Program-made: the position numbers and the translations under genes
Shown here: positions 695 through 60,790 of the stretch, one piece after another
Layout: each line of letters starts with the position of its first letter
Position numbering within the stretch: position 1 is the first letter of the stretch
Notes under the pieces: model-generated
Told to the model about the DNA's origin: nothing
Databases searched by the model: none
The model's input: only the letters and a program-made list of their open reading frames with translations
DNA from: Candidatus Krumholzibacteriia bacterium
GTDB taxonomy: Bacteria; Krumholzibacteriota; Krumholzibacteriia; LZORAL124-64-63
NCBI GenBank assembly: GCA_046484865.1
Contig: JAWOID010000063.1
Location: forward strand, 41,784-105,783
Direction: 5' to 3'
Length of the DNA: 64,000 nucleotides

Positions 695-908
695 GGATGA
701 ACTCCCGGGTCCGGTGCCTGGGTCGGGGGCATGCTCAGCATCGTACGTCTCCTCGGTGGGTGCAAGGCCGCGGGCCTGGCCGCAGGTTGCGGAGCGCCTT
801 CGCGGCGGCGCCACGCAAGGTCGTCTTGACGAAACCGCGTCGCACCTCTATGGGATTGTGGACACCATCCCGGCCGGCATGCCGGCGCCGCACCTCAGGA
901 GGCTCGCC

Positions 909-1721: not shown

Positions 1722-1827
1722 TCGCGGCGGCGGCGAGGCCGCGTCCGATACTCGGCGACGGCGGCGCCAGGTCCATGACCCGGAGATGGCCGCCGCGCCC
1801 GCCATCGTGGCCGGCACGGGCACCGGG

Positions 1828-2313: not shown

Positions 2314-2632
2314 GGATTCCCTCCCTCGATGGCGGCGTGTGTCCGCGGGGACCGCTCGCGGCGCCGGCGCGTCCGGTCCGGAGAGTCCTCGCCCGCTCTC
2401 AAGGTAGCGCCAGGAAGGGGCGGGCCGCCGCCGCTGGAGCAGACGTCCGATCGACCGGTCGTTGCACGTCGGAGCAGGCGTCTGCTGCTGGGTACGATCG
2501 GCCGGTCGCTGGTGGCGAAGCGGGAATCTGCCTACGCTGAACGCGGTCGGCAGCGAGAGCGGTCAGCGGGGTCGGCTGCGCCACCCAGCAATCCCCGCGC
2601 TCCAGGAGAGCATACCCCGCTGGAGGAACCGG

Positions 2633-3385: not shown

Positions 3386-3512
3386 AACGAGCACGGCGGT
3401 CGCAGGCCGGGCCTCCGGGGCCGGAGACGACGCGTCGACCCGGTTCCATGAGCCCTGACCGGACCCGGCTCGGTTCACGAGAGCTGGTCGCCGGGCAGGC
3501 TAGCCGGGCAGG

Positions 3513-4169
3513 CTATCGGTCAGCCGGATCTTCTGCCTGCAGGTCCTCGATCGTGCGGCCGCTGAGCACCGATTCCGGCCGCGTCGCGGTGAGATCGTCG
3601 CGGGTGCCGGTGCCGTCGCCGGCGCCGGCCTCGTCGCGGGCGCTGACCTCGTCGCCGGCATCGCCGCCGCCGACGGTATCTTCGCGCATCTTGACCAGCA
3701 GCCAGCGCTCGCGCTTGCCGGCCCCGGTGCGTCGCAGGGCGAAACCGCCGCTGAGCTTCTCGCCCTCGAGCTGGAAGAGGAAGTGGCCGCGCTCGATGGC
3801 GGCGGCTGCGGGTTGCGGGCTTTCCTCGTTCCCGGTGACGTTGCGATAGGTTCCGCGGTCCCAGACGATCATGCTGCCGCCGCCGTACTCGCCGGCCGGA
3901 ATGCGGCCCTCGAACCCGGCGTACTCCAGCGGATGGTCCTCCGTGCGCATGGCCAGACGCTTCACTGACGGATCGGTCGACGGCCCCTTCGGCACTGCCC
4001 ACGAGGCGAGCACGCCGTCCACCTCCAGGCGCAGGTCGTAGTGCAGGCTCGACGCCTGATGCTTCTGGACGACGAAGATGGGCGGATCGTTGGTCGGAGC
4101 GGGCTCTTGGCCGGCGGGCTCGGGGGTCTTGCTGAAATCGCGCTTCGCGCGGTACTCGTCCAGCGGCAT
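3513..4169 (-). CDS. Stand-alone LigD 3'-phosphoesterase (DNA ligase D N-terminal) domain protein
   Basis: LDEYRAKRDFSKTPEP, FVVQKHQASSLHYDLRLE, SWAVPKGPS, EDHPLEY and YGGGSMIVWDRG are the LigD PE-domain signatures. Confidence 0.92.
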   Translation of the reverse strand: MPLDEYRAKRDFSKTPEPAGQEPAPTNDPPIFVVQKHQASSLHYDLRLEVDGVLASWAVPKGPSTDPSVKRLAMRTEDHPLEYAGFEGRIPAGEYGGGSMIVWDRGTYRNVTGNEESPQPAAAAIERGHFLFQLEGEKLSGGFALRRTGAGKRERWLLVKMREDTVGGGDAGDEVSARDEAGAGDGTGTRDDLTATRPESVLSGRTIEDLQAEDPADR

Positions 4170-4185
4170 GGGGGAACCTCGCGGC

Positions 4186-4629
4186 TCAGTCGTAAGCGCT
4201 CATGATCGCCGGATCCTCCTTCATCAGATCACCGGCCATGTCCGCCATGCGCGTCTCCTGCCAGAACGGGAGCTGCTGGTGTACGTCGCGGTACTTCGCG
4301 GGGATCGGGTGCGTGCCGACCACCACCGGCACGCCATAGCGCGTCTCGATGAAATCCTTGAAGCGCCGGAGGTTGGGACAGGGGGGATACCCGACGACCA
4401 GACCCGTGGCGAGATGGATCACCTCGGCTCCGTTCTTGATCATCTCCTCGGGGACGTACTCCACGTTGCCGCCCGGGCAGTCGCCGCAGTAGGAGTAGCC
4501 CACCAGTTGCAGCTCCTCGTCGGCGGGATAACGGGCGAAGCCGCCCACGTGCTCACGCATCGATCTCAGGCACTTGCCGCCACCACAGGACTTGTAACGG
4601 CCACAGATGATGATGCCGATCTTCTTCAT
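4186..4629 (-). CDS. CGGC domain protein
   Basis: KIGIIICGRYKSCGGGKC, CGDCPG, PPCP and VVVGTH motifs. Confidence 0.88.
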   Translation of the reverse strand: MKKIGIIICGRYKSCGGGKCLRSMREHVGGFARYPADEELQLVGYSYCGDCPGGNVEYVPEEMIKNGAEVIHLATGLVVGYPPCPNLRRFKDFIETRYGVPVVVGTHPIPAKYRDVHQQLPFWQETRMADMAGDLMKEDPAIMSAYD

Positions 4630-4678
4630 CGCCGCTCTCCTCTCGGTTCCGGACCCGGGCTCTCCGGCAACTCCCTCG

Positions 4679-6358
4679 TCAGCTTCCGAGGCGAGCCTGC
4701 GTGGTGTCCTCCGCGGCCGGGCTCCACTCGCCCACCGCCTCCTCGTGCACCTTCACCGGGCCGCGGGCGGTCCAGCTCTGCTCGTAGTTGTAGTTCCAGC
4801 CGAGATACTCCGAGGCGCCGCCGCCCTCGGTGGTGATCAGGAAGCGGTTGGGCAGGGCGCCGATCGACTCGGCCACCTGGCCCGGCAGCTCCTTGTCGCC
4901 ACCCTGGGGGTCGATGTGGATCCACCCGTAGGGCGGCAGGTAGACCTGGCTCCAGCGGTGGAAGACATCGTCGCTGCTGGCGGCGTCGCCGCGCACCACC
5001 ACGGCACCCACGTAGCGGGCGGGGATGCCGGCGGCGCGGCACATCGAGATGAACAGGAAGGTGTACTCGCTGCAGGAGCCGTTGCCGCGCTCGAGCACCC
5101 GGGGCGCCACGTTCCAGCCGCCGGCCAGCTCGTAGTGAAGCCGCTCGCGGATGTACCGGTGGATGTTCCGCATCATCCAGTACGGATTGGTCTCGTCGCC
5201 CACGGCTTCCTTCACCGCCGACACGATGCGCGGATCGCCGATGCGGTACTTGTCTTCGTCCACCAGATACTGCTCGCGCACAGCCCGGGGAATGTCCTCC
5301 AGCTCGCCGACCTCGTGCGGGAACACGTACCAGCGCGTGTCGAACAGCTCGCAGCGGACGTCCATGGTCAGCCGCTGCCGTTCCGCGATGGGCAGGTCGG
5401 TCAGGCGCCAGTGCGCCACCTTCTGCTGCCAGCGATCCTCCAGGAATTCGTCCGGCTCCGGTGAGAAGGAGGGTTCGACGATGATGTCCTGCATGGGGGA
5501 CCCGCTCGGGACGGCGATGTAGACGTCCAGCGACGTCAACTCGCCCGGACCGTAGTTGCGGAACTCGTGGGTGAGCAGCAGATCGAGCTTCTGGCCGTTG
5601 CTGCGGCCCACCAGCTCTCCGTCCTGGGCGACCACCCGGTAGACCACGTCGTCCTGGTAGTCGGCGACCCAGAGGTGGTCGCCGTCGGCCGCCAGCCCGT
5701 ACGCGTGCGGGCCCGGCGCGGCGATGCTGAGCACCACCTCGCCGCCGTGCCGCGGATCGACGAGGTAGATGCGGTCTTGAAGCCGGTCGGCCGACCACAG
5801 GTAGCCCTGCCACCAGGTCAGGCCGGTGGGCGACTTCATGGGCGCCGCGAACTCCTCCACCGTGGTGCCGTCGGCCGTGGAGATCTGCATGAGCTTGTCG
5901 TCGGCGTCGTCGGCGAGCCACAGGTAACGGCCGTCCCAGGCGAGACCCTGCGGCACGGTGGCCGGCGATTCGAGACTCGCGAGCGTCGTCCCGCTCTCCG
6001 GGTCGAGCATGACGATGCGCTTCTCCTCGCCATCGACCACCCACAGATGCGCGCCGTCCCACGCCAGTCCGCGCGGGATGAAGCCGGGCGCGGGCAGGGT
6101 GCGCACGACCTCGCCCGTGGCCGGATCGAGCGCGTACAATTCGTCGGTGAGCCGGTCGGCGACCCAGAGGTGATGGCCGTCGAAGGCGAGGCCCGTGGGC
6201 GTGCGGCCAGGCGTGGCGAACTTGCCGGCCACGTCGCCGGGGGCGGCCAGCGCGTCGCTGACGGCAGGGGAGAAGGGACCGGCGGCGGCGACCAGGGTCG
6301 CCAGCGTCAGGGCGCCCAGCGCGAGCGCCCGGGGACTCGAAATGCTACAGCGTTCCAT
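4679..6358 (-). CDS. Secreted beta-propeller + transglutaminase-like domain protein
   Basis: Signal peptide; repeated P.GLAWDG..LWVAD propeller blades; C-terminal GSCSEY...FHRW...IHIDP Cys-His-Asp triad. Confidence 0.85.
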   Translation of the reverse strand: MERCSISSPRALALGALTLATLVAAAGPFSPAVSDALAAPGDVAGKFATPGRTPTGLAFDGHHLWVADRLTDELYALDPATGEVVRTLPAPGFIPRGLAWDGAHLWVVDGEEKRIVMLDPESGTTLASLESPATVPQGLAWDGRYLWLADDADDKLMQISTADGTTVEEFAAPMKSPTGLTWWQGYLWSADRLQDRIYLVDPRHGGEVVLSIAAPGPHAYGLAADGDHLWVADYQDDVVYRVVAQDGELVGRSNGQKLDLLLTHEFRNYGPGELTSLDVYIAVPSGSPMQDIIVEPSFSPEPDEFLEDRWQQKVAHWRLTDLPIAERQRLTMDVRCELFDTRWYVFPHEVGELEDIPRAVREQYLVDEDKYRIGDPRIVSAVKEAVGDETNPYWMMRNIHRYIRERLHYELAGGWNVAPRVLERGNGSCSEYTFLFISMCRAAGIPARYVGAVVVRGDAASSDDVFHRWSQVYLPPYGWIHIDPQGGDKELPGQVAESIGALPNRFLITTEGGGASEYLGWNYNYEQSWTARGPVKVHEEAVGEWSPAAEDTTQARLGS

Positions 6359-6385
6359 GGGGGCTCCCTCGAGGTGGGTCGGGCC

Positions 6386-8185
6386 TCAGCTCGTCATCGC
6401 TCCGGTCGCCGGGACGGCCGTCAGCTCGTCCTGCAGGATCTGCAGCCGCTCGAGAAAACGCTCGCGGTACGGTGCCGTGAAGGTGTTCGCCAGCTCACGA
6501 TAGTACTGCACGCCGCTGCGCAGGTTCTCGCGGCACTCCGCGATGGTCCGGGCCAGGCGATCCGACGGTTCGGCACCGTGCCGGACGATGTCGCCGTGCA
6601 GCCGCTCGAGGTGCAAGGCCAGCTCCTTGAGCAGCATGTGCGGGCGGTCGGGGTCGACCGGCAGCGACGCCCGGCCGTAGATGTGGTCGACCATGGCCTC
6701 GAGCGTGGTCGCCTGGTGGAAGTAGGCGGCGTTCGGACCGCAGCAGACCGCCGTCGCCGCGCCCGGATCGATGCCCATCGGTCCGGTGACGCCGCCCGCC
6801 AGGTCGTGGCAGATGCAGGCTCGCGCCATCGCCGTCTCGCGCGCGCGTCGTTGCTCGGCGGTGGACAGGTCCGAAGCGGCGATCTGCTCGAGCTTGCGTC
6901 GCTGGAACGCCCGGCTGGCGGTGCAGAGCGGAGACGAGGTGAACTCGGTGGAGGAGACCAGGAACCCCTTGGGGCAGGGGCTGCCGGGCTTGCCCTCGGC
7001 GATGCGTTGCACGCGCAGGTCCTCGCTCGTCGAGGTCCGCAGGGACCAGAAAGGGACGCCCAGCGGCGACGCATCGCTCAGGTAAATGTCGTCCTCGCCG
7101 GCCGCCGCGAGCCGTTCCAGGCTCTCGGGATCGAGATTGACCACCTCGGGCACGAAGAGGAACGCGCTACCCCAGCCGGTGCCGTCCACGCCGTAGTACT
7201 CGCGCAGGAAGCGGTCCTCGTACGCTTCGCCGATGCCCCCCTGGACGGTGATGCGCAGGGGTGCGGGCTCTGTCTGTTCCGCTCGCCCCAGCGCTGCCAG
7301 CGCCTGGTTGCGAATCTTGCGCAGGCTCCGGCCCAGGTTCTCCCGCTCGCGCCGGAAATCTTCGAGAATCGGTCCCATCAGCTGACCCTTGCCGCCGAAC
7401 GCGTGTCCGCCGCAGTTGAGCCCCGATTCCACCCGGAACTCCGAGACATGGAGTCCGAGCCGGGCCAGCAGCGTGCCCTGCAGCAGGGCGGAACGGTAGT
7501 CGCTCACCTTCAGCACGATCCGCTTGCGCAACTCGCCGTCCTGGTCGGGGAACATGGCGCCGAACTCGGCCATGTAGGAGAACAGGCGGCGATTCATGCC
7601 CGCCGAGAGCACCACCGAGGCGTCGGCACGGCTGTTCATGAAACCGCGCAGCGCGCTCAGGGCATCGGAGCCGTGCTCGGGGAACGGGCGGCCGCGCCGG
7701 TCGTGGCGGCGGTCGACCTTGGTCATGATGTTGACGTCGATGGCGCCGGGCTGGACGAACTCCCGCAACCGCTCCTGCAGCCCGCGGCGCGCCTCCGGAT
7801 CGTCGGTGGCCTGCATGCGCTCGAACAGTTGCCGCAGCGGCGATGGCGGCAGCATCTCGAAGTAGCGCACGATCTCGCTGCCCGCCTCGAACACCGCTCC
7901 GCGCACCCGCTCCACCTGGCGCTGCACCAGCGTGTCCAGGAGATCGAGGTACAGGGTGATGCGGCGGGCGCGGGCGTCGGGGGCGCTGTCCTCGATGGGT
8001 TCGCACGGTTCGTCGTGCTCGCGGCACACGCGCCGGCGCACCTGCTCGATGAGGATGTCGTCCACCAGCGACACCACCGAGGCGATGCCGTAGCGTGCCA
8101 CCTTCAGCGGCGTGTCGATCGTGAAGCCCGTTCCCATCACGGGGATATGGAAGGTGTGAACGGGCGGGCGAGAGGCGGGACCCAT
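6386..8185 (-). CDS. Conserved hypothetical protein, possible FMN TIM-barrel with Cys clusters
   Basis: HTFHIPVMGTGFTIDTP N-terminus; ESGLNCGGHAF, TVQGGIG and GWGSAFL resemble nitronate monooxygenase/IMPDH-like phosphate-binding motifs; CPKG, CTAS and CICH Cys motifs. Confidence 0.7.
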   Translation of the reverse strand: MGPASRPPVHTFHIPVMGTGFTIDTPLKVARYGIASVVSLVDDILIEQVRRRVCREHDEPCEPIEDSAPDARARRITLYLDLLDTLVQRQVERVRGAVFEAGSEIVRYFEMLPPSPLRQLFERMQATDDPEARRGLQERLREFVQPGAIDVNIMTKVDRRHDRRGRPFPEHGSDALSALRGFMNSRADASVVLSAGMNRRLFSYMAEFGAMFPDQDGELRKRIVLKVSDYRSALLQGTLLARLGLHVSEFRVESGLNCGGHAFGGKGQLMGPILEDFRRERENLGRSLRKIRNQALAALGRAEQTEPAPLRITVQGGIGEAYEDRFLREYYGVDGTGWGSAFLFVPEVVNLDPESLERLAAAGEDDIYLSDASPLGVPFWSLRTSTSEDLRVQRIAEGKPGSPCPKGFLVSSTEFTSSPLCTASRAFQRRKLEQIAASDLSTAEQRRARETAMARACICHDLAGGVTGPMGIDPGAATAVCCGPNAAYFHQATTLEAMVDHIYGRASLPVDPDRPHMLLKELALHLERLHGDIVRHGAEPSDRLARTIAECRENLRSGVQYYRELANTFTAPYRERFLERLQILQDELTAVPATGAMTS

Positions 8186-8357
8186 GGCAACTCCGGAACG
8201 AAGAGGTACCCTGATCGACGCGGAGCGCGCAGAACCGAGTGATGACACCAACAGGAAGTGTTCGTCCGGCGGGGACAAAAAGCCAGCGGAAACATTCATC
8301 CGGGGGGAACAGTCGCCGGGATCGAACTCCCGGAGATCGGCCTCCAGACTCGGAAGG

Positions 8358-9605
8358 ATGGCAACCTTGCGGGGGAACCTGCTGTTTGCGCCGATCGCCC
8401 TGACGCTCGCCTGCGGCGCGTCGACCGTCACGGCCCAGTCCGGAGTCGAACAGCCCCCGGCATGGCCCCATCAGCGCGGGTTCCACGAGGCGCTCCTGTT
8501 CGTGCATCCCCTGGTGAACTACGCCGTGCCGCCGGACCGGCAGGTGGCCTGGGAACGCGAGCGGCTGGCGGCAGGCGCCCTGCTGGGCGGCTTCGGCAGC
8601 GTCTCGACCGACGATCTGATGATCGATGCGCACTGGGCCCTGAACCCGGTGCTGGGTCGCGGCCTGCGTCTGCGCAACCGGATCGACTGGCAGCAGCTGC
8701 GGCACCTGCCGCGTGACCGGCTGGACATCGAACTGGGGTTCGAGGCGACGCTTTGGCACGGCGTGGGGGCGGTGGTGACCAGCAGCCCGGCCGCCGCCAA
8801 GGAAGACCTGGACCTGCAGGTGGGCGGCGTCTGGACGAGTGCCGACCGCACCCGATACGTCCAGGTCCGCTACGTGGCCGAGGATCTGGTCCACGACGAG
8901 AAGAACGATCGCGGTGCGCAGACCCGGACCAGTCCCCGTGGCGTGGACTGGCAACTGCGGTTGACGCGCAGCGCCTGGACCGTCGCCTCCGAGGGACGGT
9001 GGTTGTGCACCTTCGATCGCATCTATCCCGACCTGCATCGCTCCGGCGGTCTCGCGCGGCACCGGTTCGCCGACAACGAGTTGACCGTCCGCGTGGACCG
9101 CCGGCTCGGCGAGGGCGGCCCCGCCGGCGGCGGCCTGGTCCAGGCTTCATTCCTGCTCGTCGAGCATCGCGAGGCCCGCGCCTACCGGGACGTCGCCTTC
9201 GATCACGATGTGTCCGGCCGGTTCCGGTCGCTCTCGCTGCGAGGCCTCTGGCCTCTGGACGGCCGCTGGCGCCTGCGCGGCGAGCTGCACCGTCTCGACC
9301 GGCGAGCCGACGGAGCGGGCTGGCGCGCCTTTCGCTATCGCCGCGACGAGACCATCCCCGCGGTTCTCGTCCAGCGCTCCTTCGGCATGCATCACGCTGA
9401 AGCCGGCTACGTGGCCACCTTCTACCGGTGGCGCGAGGAGTCGGCGAACGGGTCCGTCAGGCAGGACGACGGCTACGCCGACAAGGTGATGGCCAGCTTC
9501 GTGCTTGCCCTCGCGCGCGGCTCCGAGCTGCAGTTCTCCGTCAGTCACGAGGTGTCGGACGGCGATTTCGGCGGTGGCAGCATCCAGGTGCTCGCCTATT
9601 TCTGA
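8358..9605 (+). CDS. Putative outer-membrane beta-barrel protein
   Basis: Signal peptide, alternating amphipathic strands, C-terminal aromatic residue (…IQVLAYF). Confidence 0.55.
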   Translation: MATLRGNLLFAPIALTLACGASTVTAQSGVEQPPAWPHQRGFHEALLFVHPLVNYAVPPDRQVAWERERLAAGALLGGFGSVSTDDLMIDAHWALNPVLGRGLRLRNRIDWQQLRHLPRDRLDIELGFEATLWHGVGAVVTSSPAAAKEDLDLQVGGVWTSADRTRYVQVRYVAEDLVHDEKNDRGAQTRTSPRGVDWQLRLTRSAWTVASEGRWLCTFDRIYPDLHRSGGLARHRFADNELTVRVDRRLGEGGPAGGGLVQASFLLVEHREARAYRDVAFDHDVSGRFRSLSLRGLWPLDGRWRLRGELHRLDRRADGAGWRAFRYRRDETIPAVLVQRSFGMHHAEAGYVATFYRWREESANGSVRQDDGYADKVMASFVLALARGSELQFSVSHEVSDGDFGGGSIQVLAYF

Positions 9606-52142: not shown

Positions 52143-53018
52143 ATGTCCGAAGCTTCCCGCCCTCGGGACATCTCCGCGCCCGGTGCAGCCGGCGATGATC
52201 GCGACGACGCCAGCCCGATCGATCGCCTCAAGGAGAAGATCCTCTCCGACTACGAGCGCATGAGCCTCGACGACGGTTTCGCGTTCGGGTGCCACCCCGG
52301 CGTGCCCTGTTTCAACGAGTGCTGCGGCGACGTCAACATCTTCCTGACGCCGTACGACGTCCTGCGCATGAAGAACGCGCTGGGCATGGGCTCGGCGGAG
52401 TTCCTCGAGCGCTACACCCAGATCCCGATCGAGCGCAATCAGGCGTTCCCGGTGGTGATGCTCAAGCTCGACGACGCCGCCGAGGGCAAGCCGTGCCAGC
52501 TCGTCGGCGACAGGGGCTGCTCCATCTACAACGACCGGCCCTGGCCCTGCCGGATGTACCCTCTGGGCCTGGCCAGTCCCAAGGACAAGGACGCCAAGGA
52601 CTTCTACTTCCTCATGAAGGAAGACGTCTGCCGCGGCTTCGAGGAGAGCGGCCGCTGGACGGTCCGCGAATGGCTCGAGGACCAGGGCATCGGTCCCTAC
52701 GACGAGTTCGGCCGGCTGTTCAAGGAGATCACGCTCCACGACTACTTCGGCACGGGTCGCAAGCTGACGCCGGAGCGGTTGGAACTGTTCTACATGGCCT
52801 GTTACGACCTGGACAGCTTCCGCCGGTTCGTCTTCCGCAGCACCTTCCTCAAGCGCTTCGATCTCGAACCGGATCTGATCGAGCGCATCCGGGACGACGA
52901 CGAGGAACTGCTACGGTTCGCCTTCCGCTGGCTGAAACTGGCGCTCTTCGGCGAGCCCACGGTGAAGATCCGGCCCGACGCCATGCCGCCGGCGGCCATG
53001 GCGCCCAAGGACGCCTGA
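52143..53018 (+). CDS. YkgJ family cysteine-cluster (CxxCxxCC) protein
   Basis: CHPGVPCFNECC, C…GCSIY..RP..CRMYP and CRG motifs. Confidence 0.88.
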   Translation: MSEASRPRDISAPGAAGDDRDDASPIDRLKEKILSDYERMSLDDGFAFGCHPGVPCFNECCGDVNIFLTPYDVLRMKNALGMGSAEFLERYTQIPIERNQAFPVVMLKLDDAAEGKPCQLVGDRGCSIYNDRPWPCRMYPLGLASPKDKDAKDFYFLMKEDVCRGFEESGRWTVREWLEDQGIGPYDEFGRLFKEITLHDYFGTGRKLTPERLELFYMACYDLDSFRRFVFRSTFLKRFDLEPDLIERIRDDDEELLRFAFRWLKLALFGEPTVKIRPDAMPPAAMAPKDA

Positions 53019-53031: not shown

Positions 53032-53604
53032 ATGACCGACGGGATCCGCATACGCACGGCCAGGATGAACGACGTGCCCGCGCTGCTGCACTACGCGCAC
53101 GCCATGTTCTCCGAGCGACTGCCCACGCTCTTCGACGTCGATCCCCTGCCTGATCTGCGCGCCGAGGAAGCCTTCGTCCGGCCGTACGTGGAGCGGCCCG
53201 GGTGGGTACTGTTCCTGGCCCTCGAAGGCCGGCGTGTCGTCGGACTGCTGAGCTTCAAACGTCACGACCATCCGCAGCTCTGTCACGGCGGCGAACTGGG
53301 CATCTCGCTGCTCGACGGCTGGCGCGGGCGCGGCGTCGGCACGCGCCTGCTGCAGGCAGTCGAGGAATGGGCGCCGCGCCACCAACTGCGGCGTCTCGAG
53401 TTGCAGGTGTTCGAGAACAACACCGGCGCCATCCGCCTCTACGAGCGGCTCGGCTACGAGCACGAAGGCCGGCGCCGGGGCGCCGTCAAGGTGCAGGGCC
53501 GCTATCTCGACATCCTGCTCATGGTGAAACGGATCGACCCGGTCGCGGCCCGCATGCAGCCGCGCAGCCGGCGTCGTCCTGCCGATCATCCGAAGAAGAC
53601 GTAG
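53032..53604 (+). CDS. GNAT family N-acetyltransferase (YhhY/AaaT-like)
   Basis: ELGISLLDGWRGRGVGTRLL and LELQVFENNTGAIRLYERLGY..EG. Confidence 0.9.
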   Translation: MTDGIRIRTARMNDVPALLHYAHAMFSERLPTLFDVDPLPDLRAEEAFVRPYVERPGWVLFLALEGRRVVGLLSFKRHDHPQLCHGGELGISLLDGWRGRGVGTRLLQAVEEWAPRHQLRRLELQVFENNTGAIRLYERLGYEHEGRRRGAVKVQGRYLDILLMVKRIDPVAARMQPRSRRRPADHPKKT

Positions 53605-54815
53605 GCCACCAGGATGGCGGCGAGGACGCCGGCCGCATCGGCCGCCAGCCCGCAGGCCGCCGCGTAGCGCGTGCGGCGCACCCCGACGCTGCCGAAGTAG
53701 ACCGCCAGGACGTAGAACGTGGTCTCGGTCGATCCCTGCATGACGCTGACCAGGCGACCGGCGAAGCTGTCGGCTCCGTGGACGGTCATCGTCTCCACCA
53801 TCATGCCGCGGGCGCCGCTGCCCGACAGCGGCTTCATGAGGGCGGTCGGCAGGCCGTCCACCCAGCGGGTGTCCACGCCGGCGGCGGCGGCGGCGGAGCG
53901 CACGCCTTCGAGCAGGAACTCCAGGGCGCCGCTGGCACGGAAGACGCCGATGGCCACCAGCATCCCCACCAGGTAGGGGATGATGCGTACGGCGACCTTG
54001 AACCCGTCCTTGGCGCCCTCCACGAACGTCTCGTACACCGGGATCCTCTGGAGCAGGGCGGCCACCAGGAAGGCGGCGATCACCAGGAAGATGAGCAGGT
54101 TGGCCAGCAGCGCCGAGGTGGGGGCGACCTGCTCCTCGGGCATGCTCGCGAACCAGGCCACCAGGCCGCCCACCAGGGCCGTCAATCCGCCGAGGTACGC
54201 CAGGACCACCGGATCCCACAAGCGCAGTCTCTGGACCGCCGCCACCGTCAGCAGCCCGACCAGGGTGGAGCAGTAGGTGGCCACCAGGATGGGCAGGAAG
54301 ACGTCGGTGGGGTCGGCCGCGCCCAGCTGTGCGCGGAAGGTGAAGATGGTCACCGGCACCACCGTCACCGACGACGTGTTGATCACCAGGAACAGGATCT
54401 GAGCGTCGGTGGCGCGGTCGGGGTCGGGGTTCAGCTCCTGCAATTCGCGCATGGCCTTGAGGCCCAGGGGCGTGGCCGCGTTGTCCAGCCCGAGCACGTT
54501 CGCGGCCATGTTCATGACGATGCTGCCGTGGGCGGGATGATCGGGAGGCACGTCGCGCAGCAGGCGCGTGAGCAGCGGGCGGAAGGCGCGGGCCAGCAAC
54601 TGCACCAGGCCGCCCTTCTCGCCCAGGCGCATGATCCCCAGCCACAGCGCCATGATGCCGGTCAGGCCGAGGGAGATCTCGAAGGCGGTGGCGCTCATCT
54701 CGAACGCGGCGCCCACCATCTCCTGCCACACGCCGGGCTCGCCCAGCAGCAGCCAGCGCGCCAGACCAGCCACCAGCGCAGCGAGGAAGAAGAAGGCCCA
54801 GATCGCGTTCAGCAT
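53586..54815 (-). CDS. Fused SpmA/SpmB nucleoside-recognition (gate) domain membrane protein
   Basis: ANVLGLDNAATPLGLKAM, INTSS, KPLSGSGARG and GSTETTFYVLAVYFGSV motifs. Confidence 0.92.
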   Translation of the reverse strand: MLNAIWAFFFLAALVAGLARWLLLGEPGVWQEMVGAAFEMSATAFEISLGLTGIMALWLGIMRLGEKGGLVQLLARAFRPLLTRLLRDVPPDHPAHGSIVMNMAANVLGLDNAATPLGLKAMRELQELNPDPDRATDAQILFLVINTSSVTVVPVTIFTFRAQLGAADPTDVFLPILVATYCSTLVGLLTVAAVQRLRLWDPVVLAYLGGLTALVGGLVAWFASMPEEQVAPTSALLANLLIFLVIAAFLVAALLQRIPVYETFVEGAKDGFKVAVRIIPYLVGMLVAIGVFRASGALEFLLEGVRSAAAAAGVDTRWVDGLPTALMKPLSGSGARGMMVETMTVHGADSFAGRLVSVMQGSTETTFYVLAVYFGSVGVRRTRYAAACGLAADAAGVLAAILVAYVFFG

Positions 54816-55214
54816 CGCCTCGGTCGCGCTCCGTCGATGGTCCCGTGGCTTGCGACGGCGCCGCCGCTCCGTCGGCGTCCGGTCCGCGGGAGCATAGCCC
54901 CCCGCGGCGTGATTGTCATCGGGCGATCGTGCGCTTGCCTCCTCCTGCTGCCCCGACTGGTCGCTTGACGCGGCCGGTCCGGCCGTTCCTGTCACCTGTC
55001 GCCGCCGGCTGACGGTTCCGCGGTCGCCGGTCGCCGGCCGGGGACACGGCGCCGCCGACGTGGCCTCTCGCCGCACGCCACAGATCTCCTCCTGACCGTC
55101 CCGGCACATCCCGGATCACGTGAACGGCACCCGCGGCGGCGGGCGGGCACCCGGATTGCCTCGCCGGTCGGTGCGGCCGCATGGGCAGGTATCCATCTCA
55201 TGGAGGAGGGCACG

Positions 55215-55397
55215 ATGATGACCGACGACCGTACCAAGCACGACCTGCATCCGCTGGACCTGGAGGAGGTGGAGCAGCGCCTGGAGGTGAGTCCGCTGCT
55301 CGTCGCAGGCGCCGACGACCCGCTCGTCGGGGGCGACACCACGTGCTGTTCGTGCAAGCTGCCGCCTCGCCCGGAGGATCCGGACGTCGGGGAGTAG
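55215..55397 (+). CDS. 60-aa putative RiPP/signal precursor peptide
   Basis: Strong RBS GGAGGAGG; MMTDDRTKHDLHPLDLEEVEQRLEVSPLLVAGADDPLVGGDTTCCSCKLPPRPEDPDVGE; sits directly upstream of the acyltransferase and protease genes. Confidence 0.7.
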   Translation: MMTDDRTKHDLHPLDLEEVEQRLEVSPLLVAGADDPLVGGDTTCCSCKLPPRPEDPDVGE

Positions 55398-55565
55398 CCG
55401 CTCGCCGGAGCGTCGCCGGCCGTGCCTCGCCCCCGGGTGGCGGCCGGCGGCGCCGCCGGTGCCGGAGCCGGACGGCTCCACGCCCGCGGGCGGAGCCCCG
55501 CCGCGCGCGGCGGGGAGGCGAGCCGGACCCGCCACGATCACCTGACGCCGCCAGGGAGGGCGCCG

Positions 55566-56825
55566 ATGAATCAGCAGACCGGTGCGCGAACGTCGCGAAC
55601 GTTGCGAACGTCGCGAACGTCGCGCTCGTCGCCGGGCGCGCAGCCGGGATCGTCCCCGGCGCCGGCGATCGAGGTGACGACGGATCGGCCGGGGCTCGAG
55701 CCGGGGGCTCTCGTCGCCGGAGCGAGTCGCCACTGGGAACTGTGGCTGCTGCGGTCGCTGCTGCCGGAGGCCGGCCCGGCCGACCTGGCGGAGATGCGGG
55801 CGCGGCGTCGTCGTTTCGCCGACCACGAGCGAGCCGCCCTGGCGCGGCTGCTGGCCGGTGACACCGCGCCGCTGCACCCCGGCCGCCGCTTCGTGGCCGG
55901 CCTGCCGGACCTGCTGCGGCGTGGCCTCGTCGTGACGATGCACGTCGGCCCGTACCAGTTCCTGCCGGAGCCATTCCTTACCGCCGGGGTGTCCCCTGGC
56001 ATCCTGCTGGACGAGGAGGCGGAGCGTCGGCTGCGACCGCGCGCCGAGTTCATGATCCGGCGTCTGTGCCTGCGCGCGCAGCCGGAGTGGATCGTAGCGA
56101 CGCAGCCGGCAGCCATCCGGCGCATGATGCGGGTGCTACGCGAGGAGCGGCCGTTGCTCGCCTTCCTCGACGGGAACGCCGGCCAGGGCGGCTTCGCGGC
56201 CACGCGCCGCGACGGCATGCCCTATCGTCTGCCGGGACGCGAGATCCGCATGCGCACGGGCCTGGCGCGACTCGTGTGTCGGCTGGAATGCCCGGTGCGC
56301 CCGGTGGTGGTGCGCTGGAGCGCCGAGGGGGCCGTGACCTGGACCGGCGACATCCGCCGCACGTACCGCCGCACCGACGATCCCCGTCAGGTCACCCGCG
56401 AACTTTGCGACTGGGGCTTCGGGGCGGTGCTCGCCGACCCCGCGCAGTGGGGCTACTGGGAGATGATCCGCGCCGCAGCCTCCTGCTTCGCGCCGGTGGC
56501 GCGGCCCGCGGCGGGCTTGCCGGGGGGATTGCATGCGGACTACGAGCGGGCGTTCGCCATCTGCCTGAAGCGCGCTCCGGACTGCGTGCGCGTGCTGCCG
56601 GCCCGCGAGGCCGAGGTGTGGAACGATTCGGTCCTCGTGGATCTGGAGGAGGACCGTTTCTACGCGTCGGAGGGACTCACCTCGGCGGCGCTGGTCAGCA
56701 TCCGGGACGAGCGGCCCACCCTCGCAGCGCTGGCCGAGCGATACGGCGAGGAATGGGTGAGGCGGCACGTGCTGCGCCTCTGCCTGCTGGGGCTCGCTCG
56801 ACTCGGAGGCGGGGCCGGTGGATGA
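55566..56825 (+). CDS. LPLAT (lipid A lauroyltransferase-like) acyltransferase with possible C-terminal RRE/PqqD-like domain
   Basis: GGGAGGG RBS; VVTMHVGPYQ (Hx4 motif), LAFLDGNAG, GLARL…CPVRPV and ADPAQW..W match the LpxL-like layout; extra C-terminal strand-strand-helix region. Confidence 0.7.
   Translation: MNQQTGARTSRTLRTSRTSRSSPGAQPGSSPAPAIEVTTDRPGLEPGALVAGASRHWELWLLRSLLPEAGPADLAEMRARRRRFADHERAALARLLAGDTAPLHPGRRFVAGLPDLLRRGLVVTMHVGPYQFLPEPFLTAGVSPGILLDEEAERRLRPRAEFMIRRLCLRAQPEWIVATQPAAIRRMMRVLREERPLLAFLDGNAGQGGFAATRRDGMPYRLPGREIRMRTGLARLVCRLECPVRPVVVRWSAEGAVTWTGDIRRTYRRTDDPRQVTRELCDWGFGAVLADPAQWGYWEMIRAAASCFAPVARPAAGLPGGLHADYERAFAICLKRAPDCVRVLPAREAEVWNDSVLVDLEEDRFYASEGLTSAALVSIRDERPTLAALAERYGEEWVRRHVLRLCLLGLARLGGGAGG
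55586..55621 (+). repeat. 9-bp tandem repeat x4 (GCGAACGTY) in the acyltransferase N-terminus
   Basis: Directly visible; encodes RTS/RTL units. Confidence 0.85.
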
Positions 56826-57981
56826 CCCGGTGGATCTGCCGGATGCCATGCGTCTGGTGCCGCACCCGCGTGGCGCCTGGCTGCTGCAGGCGCGCGGGCG
56901 GTGCTTCCTGGTCCCACCGGAGCTGGGAAGGAGCCTGGCCCGCGCGGCCGGGGGCGCCGCCCCCGCCACCACCGCCGCGCCCGCCATCTCCCCCGTCATC
57001 CCGTCTCCGGCCTCCCCTGACGACCCGCACCATGCCCGGCGGATCCTGGCCGCCGTCGAGGCCGCCGTCAGTGCCGCGCCGCGCCGCCGCCGCCGTACCG
57101 CCGGCCCCTGGCTGCGCGTGCCGCTCGTGCCGGCCGCGCTCGTGCAGCGCGTGTCGGCTCGGCTGGCGCCGCTGGCGGCCTGGCCCGCCCTCGCGGCTCA
57201 GACGGGAATGGGGGTCGCCGGTTACGTGCTGGGCACCGTCGTGCCGCTGGACGCCACCCTGCCGGCGGACGGCGGGGCGCCGTTGGCCGTCGCGACGCTG
57301 GTCTTCCTGATGCTGGCCCTGTGGCACGAGCTCGGTCATGCGGCGGCTTTGCGGCGCGAGGGCTACCCGCCCGGGCGCATCGGCGCGGGCTTGCTGCTGA
57401 TCGTACCGGTCCTCTACTGCGACGTGACCCCGGTGGCCGCCCTGCCGCGCTCCGGACGGCTGCGCGTGGACCTGGCCGGCGTGGCGTTCCAGCTCGCTGC
57501 GGGAGGCCTGGTCTGCCTGGCTGCGCGCGGCTTGCAGCTCGAGGCCCTGCGCTGGGCGGCGGCCGCGGCGCTGGCAGCCGTGGCCTGGAGCCTGCTGCCT
57601 TTCCTGCGGACCGACGGGCACTGGATCGTGGCCGACCTTCTGGACCACCACGCGCTCGACCGGCCCCTGAGCCCGGAGCGGACGGCCGGCGCCCGCCCGC
57701 CCGCGGCGCTGCGCCGCCGCGCGGGAGCCCTGGTGGCGTACCGCCTGCTCCATCTCGCGGTCGTCGGCGCCGTGCTCGGCGTCCTGCCCCTGCGCATCGC
57801 CCGGCACCTGCCGCTCGACGCGATCGCCGGGAAGCTGCCCGGCCGTCCGGACGTCGCCGTTCCGGTCCTGCGCGGCGTCCTCCTGCTGGCGGCTGCGCTC
57901 CTCGTCGGCCGGTATCTGCGGCGGGGCACACGTCTGATCAGGGCCGCCCTCAGCGATCTGCGTACCGCGCTCGGTCGCTGA
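56818..57981 (+). CDS. M50 family (site-2 protease-like) membrane zinc metalloprotease, peptide-processing type
   Basis: LWHELGH within a TM segment; GAGLLLIVPVLYCDV, RLRVDLAG and SLLPFLRTDG (NxxPxxxxDG equivalent); GTG start overlaps the acyltransferase stop. Confidence 0.8.
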   Translation: MDDPVDLPDAMRLVPHPRGAWLLQARGRCFLVPPELGRSLARAAGGAAPATTAAPAISPVIPSPASPDDPHHARRILAAVEAAVSAAPRRRRRTAGPWLRVPLVPAALVQRVSARLAPLAAWPALAAQTGMGVAGYVLGTVVPLDATLPADGGAPLAVATLVFLMLALWHELGHAAALRREGYPPGRIGAGLLLIVPVLYCDVTPVAALPRSGRLRVDLAGVAFQLAAGGLVCLAARGLQLEALRWAAAAALAAVAWSLLPFLRTDGHWIVADLLDHHALDRPLSPERTAGARPPAALRRRAGALVAYRLLHLAVVGAVLGVLPLRIARHLPLDAIAGKLPGRPDVAVPVLRGVLLLAAALLVGRYLRRGTRLIRAALSDLRTALGR

Positions 57982-58056
57982 GGCCGGGCGGGCGCCGGTC
58001 TCCGGGACGGCCGCCTGCGCTGCCGGGGAGTGGCCGGCCGGCGGGGCCCCGTCCAC

Positions 58057-58950
58057 TCACGGCGTCGCGGGCGCCTGTCCGAGCAGCGCGAGTGCCTCGT
58101 CGTGCACGAGGCCGTTGCTCGACACCAGGCTGCCTGCCTGCAGGGAGCGCTCTCCCGTCAGAGCAGTGACGCGGCCGCCAGCCTCCTCGACGATCACCAC
58201 CAGCGGCGCCACGTCCCACGGCTTGACGATGGGATCCAGCGCCAGTTCGCCGCAGCCCTCGGCCACCAGCAGGTGCTGATAGAAGTCGCCGAATCCACGC
58301 GTCCTGCGTCCGCGCCGGTAGAGCGCGGCCCACTCGGGCGGGAGGAAGGTGCCGGCCGCATCGCGCAGATCGGCGTGGAAGAGCTGAGCGTCCTCGAGCT
58401 TCGCCACCGACGAGACCTGCAATCGACGGTCGCCGCGGTAGGCGCCATGGCCGCGGGCGGCTTGCCAGCGGACGCCCAGCGCCGGGGCCGAGACGAGCCC
58501 GGCCGTCACCTCGCCGTCCTCCTCGATCGCCAGCAGGGTGGCGAAGATGGGGATGCCGCGGATGAAGTTGGCGGTGCCGTCGATGGGATCGATGATCAGG
58601 CGGGCGGCGGTGGGGCCCGGTTCGTCGCCGGCCTCCTCGCCGAGCACGCCCAGCTCGGGATGACGCAGTCTCACGATGGTGCGGGCTGCAGCCTCGATGG
58701 CCTCGTCCGCCTCGGTCACGGGGCTCGCGTCGGGCTTGGTGGCGACGCGCAGATCGCGGGCGCGAAAATGGCGCAGGGCGATGGAGTCCGCCTGGTCGGC
58801 GATGCCGTCCAGGAACGGCAGCCAGCGCTCGGCCGGCGATTCGGTCGTCGCCTGATCGGCGACGCCCTGTCTCAGAGGGGGGGCGTCGGCGGCATGGCCG
58901 GAGCCAGGATCCGAAGCGTGGTCCGGAGCATGATCGGTGGGGGCGGGCAT
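58057..58950 (-). CDS. hisN: Histidinol-phosphatase / inositol monophosphatase family
   Basis: KPDASPVTEAD, GEE, IIDPIDGTANF, RGFGDFY and WDVAP motifs. Confidence 0.8.
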   Translation of the reverse strand: MPAPTDHAPDHASDPGSGHAADAPPLRQGVADQATTESPAERWLPFLDGIADQADSIALRHFRARDLRVATKPDASPVTEADEAIEAAARTIVRLRHPELGVLGEEAGDEPGPTAARLIIDPIDGTANFIRGIPIFATLLAIEEDGEVTAGLVSAPALGVRWQAARGHGAYRGDRRLQVSSVAKLEDAQLFHADLRDAAGTFLPPEWAALYRRGRRTRGFGDFYQHLLVAEGCGELALDPIVKPWDVAPLVVIVEEAGGRVTALTGERSLQAGSLVSSNGLVHDEALALLGQAPATP

Positions 58951-59177
58951 GGTGGAATCCTTTCCTCGCCGGAGGCCGTCAGCCAGGGAGGCCCGGGCCG
59001 CCGATCGCGGTGGCGGCCGGAACGCCGGGTCTCCATCCGGGGTACTTCCGGAGTCTACAGCATGGCGGGCCTCGTGACGAGCCGGGCCCGGAGCTCTTCT
59101 TGTGGTGCCCGCGGGCGGCGGGTATCGTCACGCAGGGTTCCTTGCCCCGCGGCGCGAGCGGCGCCGAAGGAGTGCCG

Positions 59178-59519
59178 ATGGCCAGCGAACACGACGCGAA
59201 CGAGAGGCATCCCTTCGCCGGCGAGCCGCAGGAGCTGCCGATCGACGGCTGCCTCGATCTGCACCAGTTCTCGCCTCGCGACGTGAAGGACCTGGTCCCC
59301 GATTACCTGGAGGCCTGCCTCGAGCGCGGTATCCTCGACGTGCGCATCGTTCACGGCAAGGGGATCGGCGTGCTGCGGACCATCGTGCAGGGCATCCTCG
59401 AGCGGCATCCCGCCGTGGAGTGGTTCGGGCACCGTCCGGACGCCGGCTCCTGGGGCGCCACGCTGGTTCGACTGCGGCCGGAGGCCGACGATACGCCGCC
59501 CGCGCCAGGAGAACGGTGA
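59178..59519 (+). CDS. Stand-alone Smr domain protein 1
   Basis: LDLHQF, VRIVHGKGIGVLR and WGAT motifs; AAGGAG RBS. Confidence 0.9.
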   Translation: MASEHDANERHPFAGEPQELPIDGCLDLHQFSPRDVKDLVPDYLEACLERGILDVRIVHGKGIGVLRTIVQGILERHPAVEWFGHRPDAGSWGATLVRLRPEADDTPPAPGER

Positions 59520-59902
59520 TGGGGCGGAAGAGTCGCCAGCCCGGCAAGAGCGGCGTCAAGCGGGGCAAGCTCCGCTCCATCCGGTACGAGGCCGAGACCA
59601 CCGGCCCGCTCGACCGCCCGGCCCGCGCCGCCGATGCCCCGCCGGCCATCCACCTGCGTCAACTCACGCGCGACGAGGCGCTGCAACGGCTCGGGCACCA
59701 GCTCGGCGGCTACCGTGCGCGAGGCATCCGCGAGGTCCTGGTCGTGCACGGGCGCGGGCACAACTCCCCGGGGGGAGTGCCGGTGCTCGGCCCGGCCGTG
59801 CGCGAGTGGTGCGGGGCCCACCCGGACCTGGTGGGCTCGTGGCGCGAGGCGCCCCCGCGCTGGGGCGGCCCGGGTGCCATCGTGGTGGTCTTGCGGGGCT
59901 GA
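59519..59902 (+). CDS. Stand-alone Smr domain protein 2 (degenerate DLH motif)
   Basis: IHLRQLTRDEA, VLVVHGRG and GGPGAIVV; TGATG coupling to the upstream Smr gene. Confidence 0.8.
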   Translation: MGRKSRQPGKSGVKRGKLRSIRYEAETTGPLDRPARAADAPPAIHLRQLTRDEALQRLGHQLGGYRARGIREVLVVHGRGHNSPGGVPVLGPAVREWCGAHPDLVGSWREAPPRWGGPGAIVVVLRG

Positions 59903-60037: not shown

Positions 60038-60790
60038 ATGACGGCCGGGCACGCAGCGGGGCTCGACGATCGCGTGGCGCTGGTCACCGGCGGCGCGCGC
60101 CGCGTGGGCCGTCGACTCGTGCTCGATTTGGCGCGGGCCGGCGCCGCGGTGGCCCTGCACTACAACACCTCCTCCGAAGAGGCCGAACGCACCGCCGCGG
60201 AGGCTCGCGAGCAGGGCGCCAGGCAGGTCGTCCTCGTGCGCGGCGACCTGTCCCATGCCGCCACGGCCGAGCAGGTGATCGCCGAGAGCGCCGCTGCGCT
60301 GGGGCCGGTGGACGTGCTGGTGAACAACGCGTCCATCTTCGAGCCGGGCGACGTCCTCGCCACCGGTGCGGACGCGTGGGACCGCCACCACGCGGTGAAC
60401 CTGCGGGCCCCCTTCCTGCTGGCCCGCGCCATGGCCCGCGCATTGCCGGAGGACCGCGCGGGGGCGATCGTCAACCTGAACGACTGGCGCGCCCTGCGTC
60501 CCGGCGCCGATCACTTCGCCTACACCGTCAGCAAGGTCGGACTGGGCGGCCTCACGCGGGCGCTGGCCGTGTCCCTCGCCCCCCGCGTCCGGGTGAACGA
60601 GCTGGCGCTGGGCGCCGTGCTGGCGCCCGAAGGCGCCTCGGAGGATTACGTGCACACGCTCCGGCGCGAGATCCCGCTGCGTCGCTTCGGCGCGCTGGAG
60701 TCGGTCGGCGAGGCGCTGCTGTACCTGCTGCGCGCCCGTGACGTCACCGGACAGACGCTGCTGGTCGACGGCGGGCGGCACCTGGTGTGA
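60038..60790 (+). CDS. SDR oxidoreductase, pteridine reductase/FolM-like
   Basis: TGGARRVG, HYNTS, VNNASIF and YTVSK motifs; upstream of folB-folK. Confidence 0.85.
   Translation: MTAGHAAGLDDRVALVTGGARRVGRRLVLDLARAGAAVALHYNTSSEEAERTAAEAREQGARQVVLVRGDLSHAATAEQVIAESAAALGPVDVLVNNASIFEPGDVLATGADAWDRHHAVNLRAPFLLARAMARALPEDRAGAIVNLNDWRALRPGADHFAYTVSKVGLGGLTRALAVSLAPRVRVNELALGAVLAPEGASEDYVHTLRREIPLRRFGALESVGEALLYLLRARDVTGQTLLVDGGRHLV

Follow-up and report, generated by a model that had tools for sequence, protein, structure and literature searches.

Within the window analysed here, a stretch of 64,000 nucleotides from the genome of a Candidatus Krumholzibacteriia bacterium (contig JAWOID010000063.1), positions 55215-57981 hold three co-directional genes: a small open reading frame (ORF), a middle gene, and a gene for a membrane protease with an HExxH motif. 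An initial annotation had placed these genes in this order and had taken them for a candidate system that makes a modified peptide, with unrelated spmAB-like and hisN-like genes on the opposite strand at either side. The arrangement was found as described, and the identities of the flanks were backed by Gate, HisN and Inositol_P matches. The features of the cassette and of its flanks are collected in Table 1. Each of the three gene starts allows an alternative. An in-frame ATG at 55200 would lengthen the precursor to 65 residues; the ORF list begins the middle gene at GTG 55422, and the ATG at 55566, with GGGAGGG 6 nt upstream, agrees better with homologues; and the protease may start at GTG 56818, giving an 8-nt overlap with the end of the middle gene (TGA 56823-56825), or at ATG 56848, 22 nt past the stop of that gene.

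Table 1. Features of the three-gene cassette and its direct flanks, in positions of the window.
Feature	Position	Strand	Basis or remark
Shine-Dalgarno-like GGAGGAGGG	55202..55210	+	strong ribosome-binding site, 4 nt before precursor ATG; read from sequence
Precursor peptide gene, 60 aa, MMTDDRTKHDLHPLDLEEVEQRLEVSPLLVAGADDPLVGGDTTCCSCKLPPRPEDPDVGE	55215..55397	+	ATG 55215, stop to 55397
Leader recognition stretch, residues 10-24, DLHPLDLEEVEQRLE	55242..55286	+	most conserved part of the precursor alignment (A3)
Core motif CCSCK (C44-K48), candidate acyl-acceptor site	55344..55358	+	C45 at least 90% conserved
LPLAT-fold acyltransferase with C-terminal RRE-like domain, 419 aa	55566..56825	+	AlphaFold, Foldseek
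His126 codon, motif HVGPYQ, candidate block-1 catalytic His	55941..55943	+	at least 90% conserved in the enzyme alignment (A1)
Asp202 codon, LDGN motif, candidate block-3 acid	56169..56171	+	invariant in A1
C-terminal RRE-like winged-helix domain, residues 310-419	56493..56822	+	domain model, VIA-align, co-fold
HExxH intramembrane metalloprotease, 387 aa, candidate leader peptidase	56818..57981	+	NCBIfam sub-threshold; motifs of the protease alignment (A4)
HELGH zinc-binding motif of protease	57325..57339	+	sequence; invariant in A4
Asp266 codon within LPFLRTDGHW; candidate for a third metal ligand, as in site-2 proteases	57613..57615	+	invariant D266-G267 in A4
spmAB-like membrane protein, outside cassette	53586..55109	-	Pfam Gate E 1.1e-20, 2 stretches
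hisN-like phosphatase, outside cassette	58057..58950	-	TIGR02067 246 bits (cut-off 275), Inositol_P E 1e-41

The small ORF proved to be a constant partner of the middle gene. A scan of one genome per species gave 50 related loci, 26 of which carry record titles that read Krumholzibacteria or Krumholzibacteriota and the rest bacterium, Latescibacterota, Fibrobacteraceae/Fibrobacter, Gemmatimonadales or delta proteobacterium, the titles of metagenome-assembled genomes (MAGs) with such loci being unreliable as taxonomy. A strict regular expression for the leader matched only the window and one other locus (L001); looser inspection and a profile made from an alignment of 34 precursors (A3) recovered the remaining loci, and 15 of the loci matched with this profile had contributed nothing to it. 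By this profile, every locus with 250 nt or more of upstream sequence (46 of 46) has a homologous small ORF immediately upstream of the acyltransferase gene. In a specificity control, A3 was run over 7,806 six-frame open segments from 51 loci (438,664 bases) and returned 48 matches in 46 loci: all 48 lay upstream of an acyltransferase gene on the same strand, no segment elsewhere was matched, and the peptide of L008, cut by a contig end, fell below threshold. The arrangement of precursor and enzyme is far beyond chance. The initial annotation had proposed looking for a short ORF ahead of homologous acyltransferase/protease pairs, and one was consistently present, with a predicted leader and a Cys-rich core.

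Across the 34 precursors, the leader follows the consensus L..L.RLG[IV].ELEERLE.SPLL, in which L11, L14, R22 and E24 are invariant. It is succeeded by a variable linker, a Cys cluster and then an acidic, Pro-rich tail. The clusters mostly read CC[STVC]CK, with CCxDKCSGND, CxCxCxC and others also seen, and a core typically contains three to four Cys and exactly one Lys. This Lys adjoins a Cys in 27 precursors; three have Arg in its place and four have neither. No arginase-like gene was found in the window or in loci L001-L051, and the NCBIfam precursor models gave no match for eight precursors at E values up to 10.

For the middle protein, a search of about 5.8 billion proteins returned a family of 61, the window's own included, at 43-64% identity. 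The AlphaFold model, made with 24 homologues, had a pLDDT (predicted local distance difference test) of 83, and most of residues 52-419 lay above 90. The ~50 residues at the start are of low complexity, predicted to be disordered and without counterpart in most homologues; near-identical 9-nt units (CGAACGTCG-like) at 55596-55640 encode RTSRTLRTSRTSRSS in this N-terminus. In the model, residues ~55-300 take up the LPLAT (lysophospholipid acyltransferase) fold of PatA and LpxM: Foldseek matched PatA at E values of 1.3e-8 to 1e-7 and template-modelling (TM) scores by target of 0.59-0.66 (5oce, E 1.3e-8; 7ojt, TM 0.66), and Acinetobacter baumannii LpxM (5knk) at E 2.2e-7. Structure rows of the ESM Atlas likewise name PF03279, this family is precomputed on 16 of the 61 homologous proteins, and an exhaustive phmmer search ties the middle protein to distant relatives that pass the PF03279 cut-off. 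A whole-protein profile run against the PDB gave marginal PatA matches only (E ~0.6), in an alignment that begins just after Asp202. The description of this protein as an LpxL-like acyltransferase was thus borne out at the level of the fold (PatA, LpxM) and not by direct Pfam match, where PF03279 stayed below its cut-off.

The candidate catalytic residues are well kept. Among the 24 sequences of alignment A1, His126 is at least 90% conserved and is followed by an invariant Gly128, and Asp202 is invariant within an LDGNxGxGG motif. His126 stands at the position of the histidine of the HX4D motif of LPLATs. According to the accessible text of one account (PMC4792965), the partner of the block-1 His in PatA, HtrB and MsbB is a block-3 Glu or Asp instead of the HX4D acid, and a His126/Asp202 pair is therefore plausible; judged from the order of motifs, Asp202 would be the equivalent of PatA E200. 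The [LI]DGN motif is also invariant in distant relatives of the enzyme, where HxGP is kept too. The His and the DGN motif appear to go together, because one homologue (P0044) has lost both.

The C-terminal part of the middle protein, which had gone unmentioned in the initial annotation, resembles a RiPP recognition element (RRE), the leader-binding domain of enzymes that act on peptides made by the ribosome and modified after translation (RiPPs). The model of residues 310-419 (pLDDT 87) opens with a helix, continues with four short strands and three helices, and closes with one more strand. By DSSP, strands at 40-43, 47-50 and 55-58 (domain numbering) are followed by helices at 64-73, 77-84 and 86-98, which is the winged helix-turn-helix of an RRE, a three-stranded sheet and then three helices. 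VIA-align paired the domain with many solved RRE-bearing chains, which fill much of the top list at middling scores of Z 4.2-6.1, in a range (Z < 8) where a match can be a generic common arrangement. These chains comprise the PbtF RRE, TbtB, TigE, MibB, LynD, TbiB1 and MccB as well as PqqD, lasso B1, MadB, NisB, McbB, ThcOx and CteB (PDB entries among them: 8t19, 6ec8, 8vpo, 4v1t, 5v1u, 5sxy, 6jx3, 4wd9 and 5wgg); the PbtF RRE (8t19) aligned at Z 5.8 with a root-mean-square deviation of 2.8 over 76 residues. The best Foldseek match of the domain was the RRE of the lasso-peptide protein TbiB1, weakly (E 0.15), and a profile of the domain (A2) found no sequence match in the PDB. In the distant relative P0097, PqqD (E 0.094) and ApyI (E 0.097) matched exactly in the C-terminal domain, both sub-threshold.

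Co-folding of enzyme residues 52-419 (with alignment A1) and the precursor (with A3) gave an ipSAE of 0.73 (runs at 0.73, 0.71 and 0.76), a mark reached by 116 of 157 solved complexes and by 2 of 215 mismatched pairs, versus 0.03 for the best control. The runs had at least 25% of contacts in common, the partner pLDDT was at least 44, and the only confidently placed peptide residues were 10-24, the conserved leader. On the enzyme, contacts fell on strands 352-356 and 364-367, on the last helix (404-408), and on catalytic-domain residues 53-57, 214 and 302-308. In solved RRE complexes, the leader lies against an edge strand and a helix; because such complexes exist, the co-fold pass may partly reflect likeness to them. 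The co-fold proposed in the initial annotation passed and lends support to binding: the leader is predicted by the model to dock on the C-terminal RRE-like domain.

The third gene encodes a protease for which the closest curated families were leader peptidases of RiPP systems. NCBIfam daptide_HExxH (DapP, NF041824) scored 63.1 bits versus a cut-off of 300, in a match that spans residues 105-280 only, and YydH/LiaK (NF058609) scored 27.7 bits versus 225. By sequence, the protease appears to be a relative of the DapP and YydH/LiaK leader peptidases and a member of neither equivalog, and these two matches, sub-threshold as they are, connect it with known RiPP leader peptidases. The M50 label fared unevenly: the HELGH motif and the downstream DG are invariant, and the Pfam M50 score is below its cut-off (20.4 vs 27.2 bits). 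In the alignment of 20 homologues (A4), H170, E171, H174, D266 and G267 are invariant, and the downstream motif reads LPFxRxDG[HY]W; Asp266 is a putative metal ligand, as in the M50 family. A hydropathy scan showed ~5 hydrophobic spans, and the sequence has the HExxH in a membrane helix and the downstream LDG-type Asp that mark M50 proteases. By the A4 profile, of the 45 loci with 600 nt or more on the downstream side, 43 have the protease after the acyltransferase gene; the two loci without it, L045 and L046, are close relatives of each other. A comparison of the enzyme's C-terminal domain (A2) with the protease family (A4) by hhalign found no shared domain (probability 0.03); the N-terminal 45 residues of the protease are conserved.

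The cassette is close to a fixture of one bacterial family. The window's genome (4.07 Mb, 148 contigs, 88% complete) holds one copy. Within the phylum, the enzyme occurs in 76 of 208 genomes, the window's own counted in; it is present in 75 of 90 genomes of its own family and in 0 of 117 from the eight other families. In the family, the genes stand in a conserved block of the order spmAB-like, DUF2797, precursor, enzyme, protease, Smr, Smr, SDR (short-chain dehydrogenase/reductase), folB-like, folK-like; relative to this block, the window lacks DUF2797 and has hisN inserted.

Proteins with the HxGP and [LI]DGNxGxG motifs and a C-terminal extension were also found at 24-38% identity, in Bacteroidota, Acidobacteriota and one cyanobacterium. 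This distant set comprises 71 loci (L055-L125), with one scan of 68 loci that were mostly Bacteroidota; no informative names came out of a cluster look-up of these relatives. They lie in evident RiPP clusters, with genes for fatty-acid activation and of the arginase family beside them. A protease of the window's type is present in 19 of the 71 loci, an arginase-family gene in 13 and both in 12; the arginase-bearing loci include those of Arcicella and Hymenobacter. Adjoining these genes are one to six tandem small ORFs with leaders of the [IV]ELEERLEM type and Cys-containing cores, among them RCNGND and RCSGND cores closely like the KCSGND cores of four Krumholzibacteria loci. Among loci with such a small ORF, Arg stands beside the core Cys in 7 of 8 arginase-bearing loci (the eighth, L095, has Lys) versus 0 of 6 arginase-less ones, counts that are descriptive, carry no statistical test and come from related lineages. 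In the arginase-bearing loci L055, L056, L096 and L097, no leader-type ORF was found within the DNA stretches examined. Runs of three to six near-identical LEERLEM precursors were seen at L059:7432-8880, L062:1343-1915, L066:922-1684 and L068:212-843, all in Bacteroidota (Dysgonomonas, Arcicella, Cytophagales), with protease and LPLAT genes adjoining.

Two of the distant loci are richer in genes. L055, from a Pyrinomonadaceae MAG (211-8926), combines two acyltransferase genes, a DapP-like protease and an arginase-family protein with an RRE-like N-terminus with two genes for MNIO enzymes (MbnB/TglH/ChrH; oxidative enzymes that depend on multinuclear non-heme iron) and one for a PqqD-domain protein. 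Its protease shares 30% identity with that of the window across 201 residues (E 3e-21) and scores 91 bits with NF041824. A further product of this locus (6203-7123) has a weak Frankia_peptide match at its N-terminus (E 0.0078). In L056, two LPLAT genes are followed by a frame of 1,387 residues (4905-9068) with AMP-binding, acyl-CoA-dehydrogenase and PP-binding (acyl carrier protein, ACP) domains: this protein is a fatty-acid activating and carrying unit. A gene for an Rce1-like membrane protein stands between the two LPLAT genes. At the other extreme, the record titled Flavobacterium maritimum strain SYSU M80005, which is no MAG, carries a minimal trio of precursor, protease and LPLAT (L092:3166-6032) that could serve as an experimental model.

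Together, these observations lead us to a reading of the three genes that we hold to be somewhat probable: a compact, leader-dependent RiPP-type maturation cassette in which the tailoring enzyme is an LPLAT-family acyltransferase that acts on the core before the leader is removed. The 60-residue precursor would consist of an N-terminal leader and a core that is acidic and rich in Pro and carries a Cys cluster, in most cases with a single Lys (CCxCK). Its leader would dock on the RRE-like winged-helix domain at the C-terminus of the enzyme, as predicted by the co-fold, and the LPLAT-fold domain, with its putative His126/Asp202 pair, may then move an acyl chain from housekeeping acyl-ACP or acyl-CoA onto a side chain of the core. 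Since the enzyme appears to need the leader, acylation would precede cleavage and would fall on a side chain rather than on the new N-terminus. The acceptor that we favour is the N-epsilon of the Lys beside the Cys cluster, because of the selidamide precedent and the pattern of Arg with arginase versus Lys; the Cys thiol would be the alternative, and S-acylation stays live because Cys is the only near-universal residue of the core. Next, the acylated and membrane-attached peptide would be cut from its leader by the HExxH protease, as homology to DapP and YydH suggests. An intramembrane protease should need its substrate at the membrane, and the acyl chain would tether a polar core there. The outcome would be a Cys-rich peptide lipidated on a side chain, with lipidation perhaps its sole modification: the genes of the cassette encode neither an exporter nor a second tailoring enzyme, and neither radical-SAM (S-adenosylmethionine) nor ATP-binding cassette (ABC) genes are among them.

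The distribution bears on what such a peptide might do. A cluster for an accessory antibiotic would not usually be inherited vertically and present in nearly all members of a family, and the pattern seen here hints, speculatively, at a physiological role. A near-core, syntenic cassette in one Krumholzibacteriota family suggests a Cys peptide that is anchored in the membrane and has a physiological task in the handling of metals or redox or in the envelope, and not an accessory antibiotic. A broader claim, quite conceivable and in our view slightly on the doubtful side, is that the window and its distant relatives belong to one phylum-spanning RiPP class with an ELEERLE-type leader, a DapP-like peptidase and an LPLAT that is often fused to an RRE and that would acylate Lys, Arg-derived Orn or Cys.

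Several observations weigh against lipidation by a leader-guided LPLAT. Seven of the 34 precursors have no Lys beside a Cys, so Lys cannot be the universal acceptor, and three of these have Arg there though no arginase is present. Neither an acyl-activating gene nor an ACP is encoded in the cassette. The direct PF03279 match of the window protein has E 0.044 and 13.4 bits, under the Pfam gathering cut-off of 22.3, and the protein has neither an NCBIfam match nor a sequence match in the PDB. The canonical HX4(D/E) motif is absent: the +5 position is Q, K, N, R, H, W or P in the 24 sequences and never D or E, with Gln in the window. As to the RRE, the two top rows of the VIA-align list, above its middling RRE matches, are CmlS and Rv2067c, non-RRE proteins at Z 6.5; PqqD (PF05402) gave no match for the window protein at E values up to 10; and the co-fold placed the core without confidence. 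Synteny within one family is largely vertical, and the 50 loci are not 50 independent observations. In general, several of the family assignments are sub-threshold by sequence and lean on predicted structures, and the chemistry is a prediction.

An LPLAT-fold enzyme in a RiPP cassette might do something other than attach a fatty acid, which we consider unlikely, though worth keeping in mind. It could transfer a short or unusual acyl group, form a Cys thioester on the way to a thiolactone or lactam, or O-acylate Ser/Thr; in this last variant the O-acyl group would serve as a leaving group for dehydration, followed by a thioether with a neighbouring Cys. The make-up of the cores lends this some appeal, Cys being always kept (C45 at least 90%) and Lys not always, and Ser/Thr standing inside the Cys cluster of many of them (CC[ST]CK); the missing HX4D acid and a cassette without acyl-ACP or ligase gene point the same way. 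However, the closest solved folds are long-chain acyltransferases, a distant relative adjoins a protein with fatty-acyl-AMP-ligase, acyl-CoA-dehydrogenase and ACP domains, the pattern of Arg with arginase versus Lys points to an amine acceptor, and CCCCK cores contain no Ser/Thr at all.

More improbable again is that the LPLAT-like protein is catalytically silent, a leader-binding scaffold or chaperone like the daptide DUF-RRE protein MpaB (DUF, domain of unknown function), that would hand the peptide over to the protease or to enzymes whose genes lie outside the cassette and leave an unlipidated, metal- or redox-active Cys peptide as the product. His126, G128, P129, D202-G203-N204 and many residues of the pocket region are invariant or nearly so across orthologues of 43-64% identity, and HxGP and DGN are kept in distant relatives, all of which is hard to explain without catalysis; the joint loss of His and DGN in P0044 argues likewise. 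What such a scaffold would account for is a core with three to four Cys in an acidic setting, a direct family match that is sub-threshold, a Gln at the +5 position, and a presence in 75 of 90 family genomes that is more like that of a cofactor or housekeeping peptide than of an antibiotic. To the idea that an ordinary envelope-lipid acyltransferase (for lipid A or a glycolipid) shares an operon with a general site-2 protease, the small ORF being regulatory or unrelated, we give hardly any credence. It fits the fold and the nearest named families, which are lipid A and PIM (phosphatidylinositol mannoside) acyltransferases, and the conserved housekeeping neighbourhood (Smr, SDR, folB, folK), but it leaves aside the extra RRE-like domain, the specific predicted docking of the leader (0.73 vs 0.03), the strict co-conservation of the peptide, a protease like RiPP leader peptidases rather than RseP-type enzymes, and the recurrence of the trio in further phyla and in different gene orders, where several precursor copies stand in tandem.

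Neighbouring genes were assigned to the surroundings rather than to the cassette. The spmAB-like flank is syntenic in 16 related loci, and the hisN-like gene is an insertion relative to related loci, where Smr genes directly adjoin the protease. Most related loci have two Smr-domain genes after the protease; in the window these lie at 59010-59902, with hisN intervening. A fusion to Smr (PF01713) is annotated for 6 of 65 protease homologues (P0203, P0205, P0217, P0221, P0222 and P0227); these may be real fusions or read-through gene calls. The SDR gene at 60038-60790 was considered as a tailoring gene: it is syntenic, but it stands among folB/folK-like neighbours and was taken as probably folate-related. 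In many related loci, DUF2797 is the gene just upstream of the precursor, yet it is not counted in the system because the genome of the window, 88% complete, lacks it. Upstream of the spmAB-like gene are genes for a CxxCxxCC-domain protein (52143-53018) and an acetyltransferase of the GNAT (GCN5-related N-acetyltransferase) superfamily (53032-53604), which we took as unrelated to the cassette because they have no counterpart in related loci.

Between precursor and enzyme, the window has a 168-nt spacer with a GC-only palindrome, CCCCGCCGCGCGCGGCGGGG, at 55496-55515, which could be an attenuating hairpin that sets the ratio of precursor to enzyme; the spacer is not kept in other loci, which often have the two genes side by side with no gap. 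A promoter and terminator scan of 54900-58300 returned 0 sites. The sequencing runs with part of this stretch are two soil-metagenome DNA runs, and no RNA run is listed. Paralogous second cassettes occur at L045:2546-5126, L046:4767-8310 and L047:4732-6020, in genomes that also hold the main cassette. Their precursors have a single-Cys core, SY[VI]C[NT]I, their acyltransferases are 31-33% identical to the window's, and they have no protease of their own. A FabH-like gene and an ABC transporter lie downstream in L045 and L046, and a CusA-like RND (resistance-nodulation-division) pump lies upstream in L046.

Ribosomal lipopeptides are wanted as programmable alternatives to non-ribosomal lipopeptide drugs. 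If our interpretation is true, an RRE-guided LPLAT would be a new enzyme superfamily for RiPP chemistry and a class-defining handle for genome mining, it would join the field of lipid A and PIM acyltransferases with RiPP leader recognition, and the cassette would provide a first functional lead for a conserved gene set of the uncultured Krumholzibacteriota.

The system appears to be undescribed, with no curated family and no paper found. Neither the precursor nor the enzyme is covered by a model of NCBIfam (June 2026). Searches of the full-text literature, a scope that leaves supplements and subscription-only work outside, found no account linking PF03279 with RiPPs or LEERLE with a leader, nothing on RiPP biosynthesis for RiPP combined with LPLAT, LpxL or HtrB, and no match combining four of the five terms RiPP, arginase, acyltransferase, intramembrane and Bacteroidota. 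By term search, acyltransferases go unmentioned in a structure-based RRE survey (PMC12710340) and in a 2025 preprint on daptide diversity. GNATs are the sole fatty-acyltransferases that the available text of an October 2026 paper (PMC13647313) names for RiPPs; in the window, the only nearby GNAT (53032-53604), having no counterpart in related loci, does not commend itself as the maturase of the cassette.

Among known systems, PatA and LpxM/LpxL are the best structural matches of the enzyme and, as far as the source text at hand describes the family, use a block-1 His with a block-3 acid, to which His126 and Asp202 would correspond; unlike it, they acylate glycolipids and have no RRE domain, and the family here is marked by HxGPY and LDGNxGxGG motifs of its own and by marginal sequence similarity to them. 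The YydF/YydG/YydH system of Bacillus likewise has a small peptide processed by a related HExxH membrane protease, whereas the cassette here lacks a radical-SAM epimerase and an ABC exporter and its protease reaches 27.7 bits against the 225 of the YydH/LiaK model.

The daptides come closer. In the accessible part of their description (PMC10036551), DapP is a site-2-type protease with an RRE, the leader logo reads ELExMEAP, and MpaB is a DUF protein with a C-terminal RRE. So far as that part goes, the two systems share an acidic leader (ELExMEAP there and ELEERLE.SP here, a similarity seen by eye), a tailoring protein with a C-terminal RRE (an RRE-like domain here) and an HExxH intramembrane leader peptidase (a candidate here), and daptide_HExxH is the best NCBIfam match of the window protease. 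They differ in that daptides have an invariant C-terminal Thr, with which 0 of the 34 precursors here end, and in that the oxidoreductase, aminotransferase and methyltransferase of the MpaC/D/M type are absent from the cassette and its neighbours. Moreover, the core here is polar and Cys-rich, in contrast to the aliphatic helix of the daptide core in the same portion of that description (PMC10036551), and the RRE, or RRE-like domain, is fused to an LPLAT here and to a DUF in MpaB, again as that portion gives it.

With the selidamides, the likeness is one of proposed chemistry. The available text on kamptornamide, phaeornamide and the nostolysamides describes RiPPs acylated on Lys or Orn by GNATs (PMC8784127, PMC13647313), in which Arg is converted to Orn and then N-acylated, and Lys is acylated where an arginase is absent (PMC8784127). 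By comparison with that text, the logic proposed here is alike, in that the leader would guide the attachment of a fatty acid to the side chain of Lys or of an Orn derived from Arg, and arginase-bearing relatives of the window's cassette have a core Arg, arginase-less ones Lys or no basic residue beside the Cys. The machinery is different: the acyltransferase belongs to the LPLAT (PF03279-like) superfamily instead of GNAT, the arginase-family genes of the relatives are PF00491 and not the OspR-type PF12640 of the accessible account (PMC8784127), the leaders are not of the NHLP or Nif11 type, and there is no lanthionine synthetase. If the interpretation is true, ribosomal lipopeptides would be reached by two routes that evolved independently, that of the GNATs in the selidamides and that of the present cassette.

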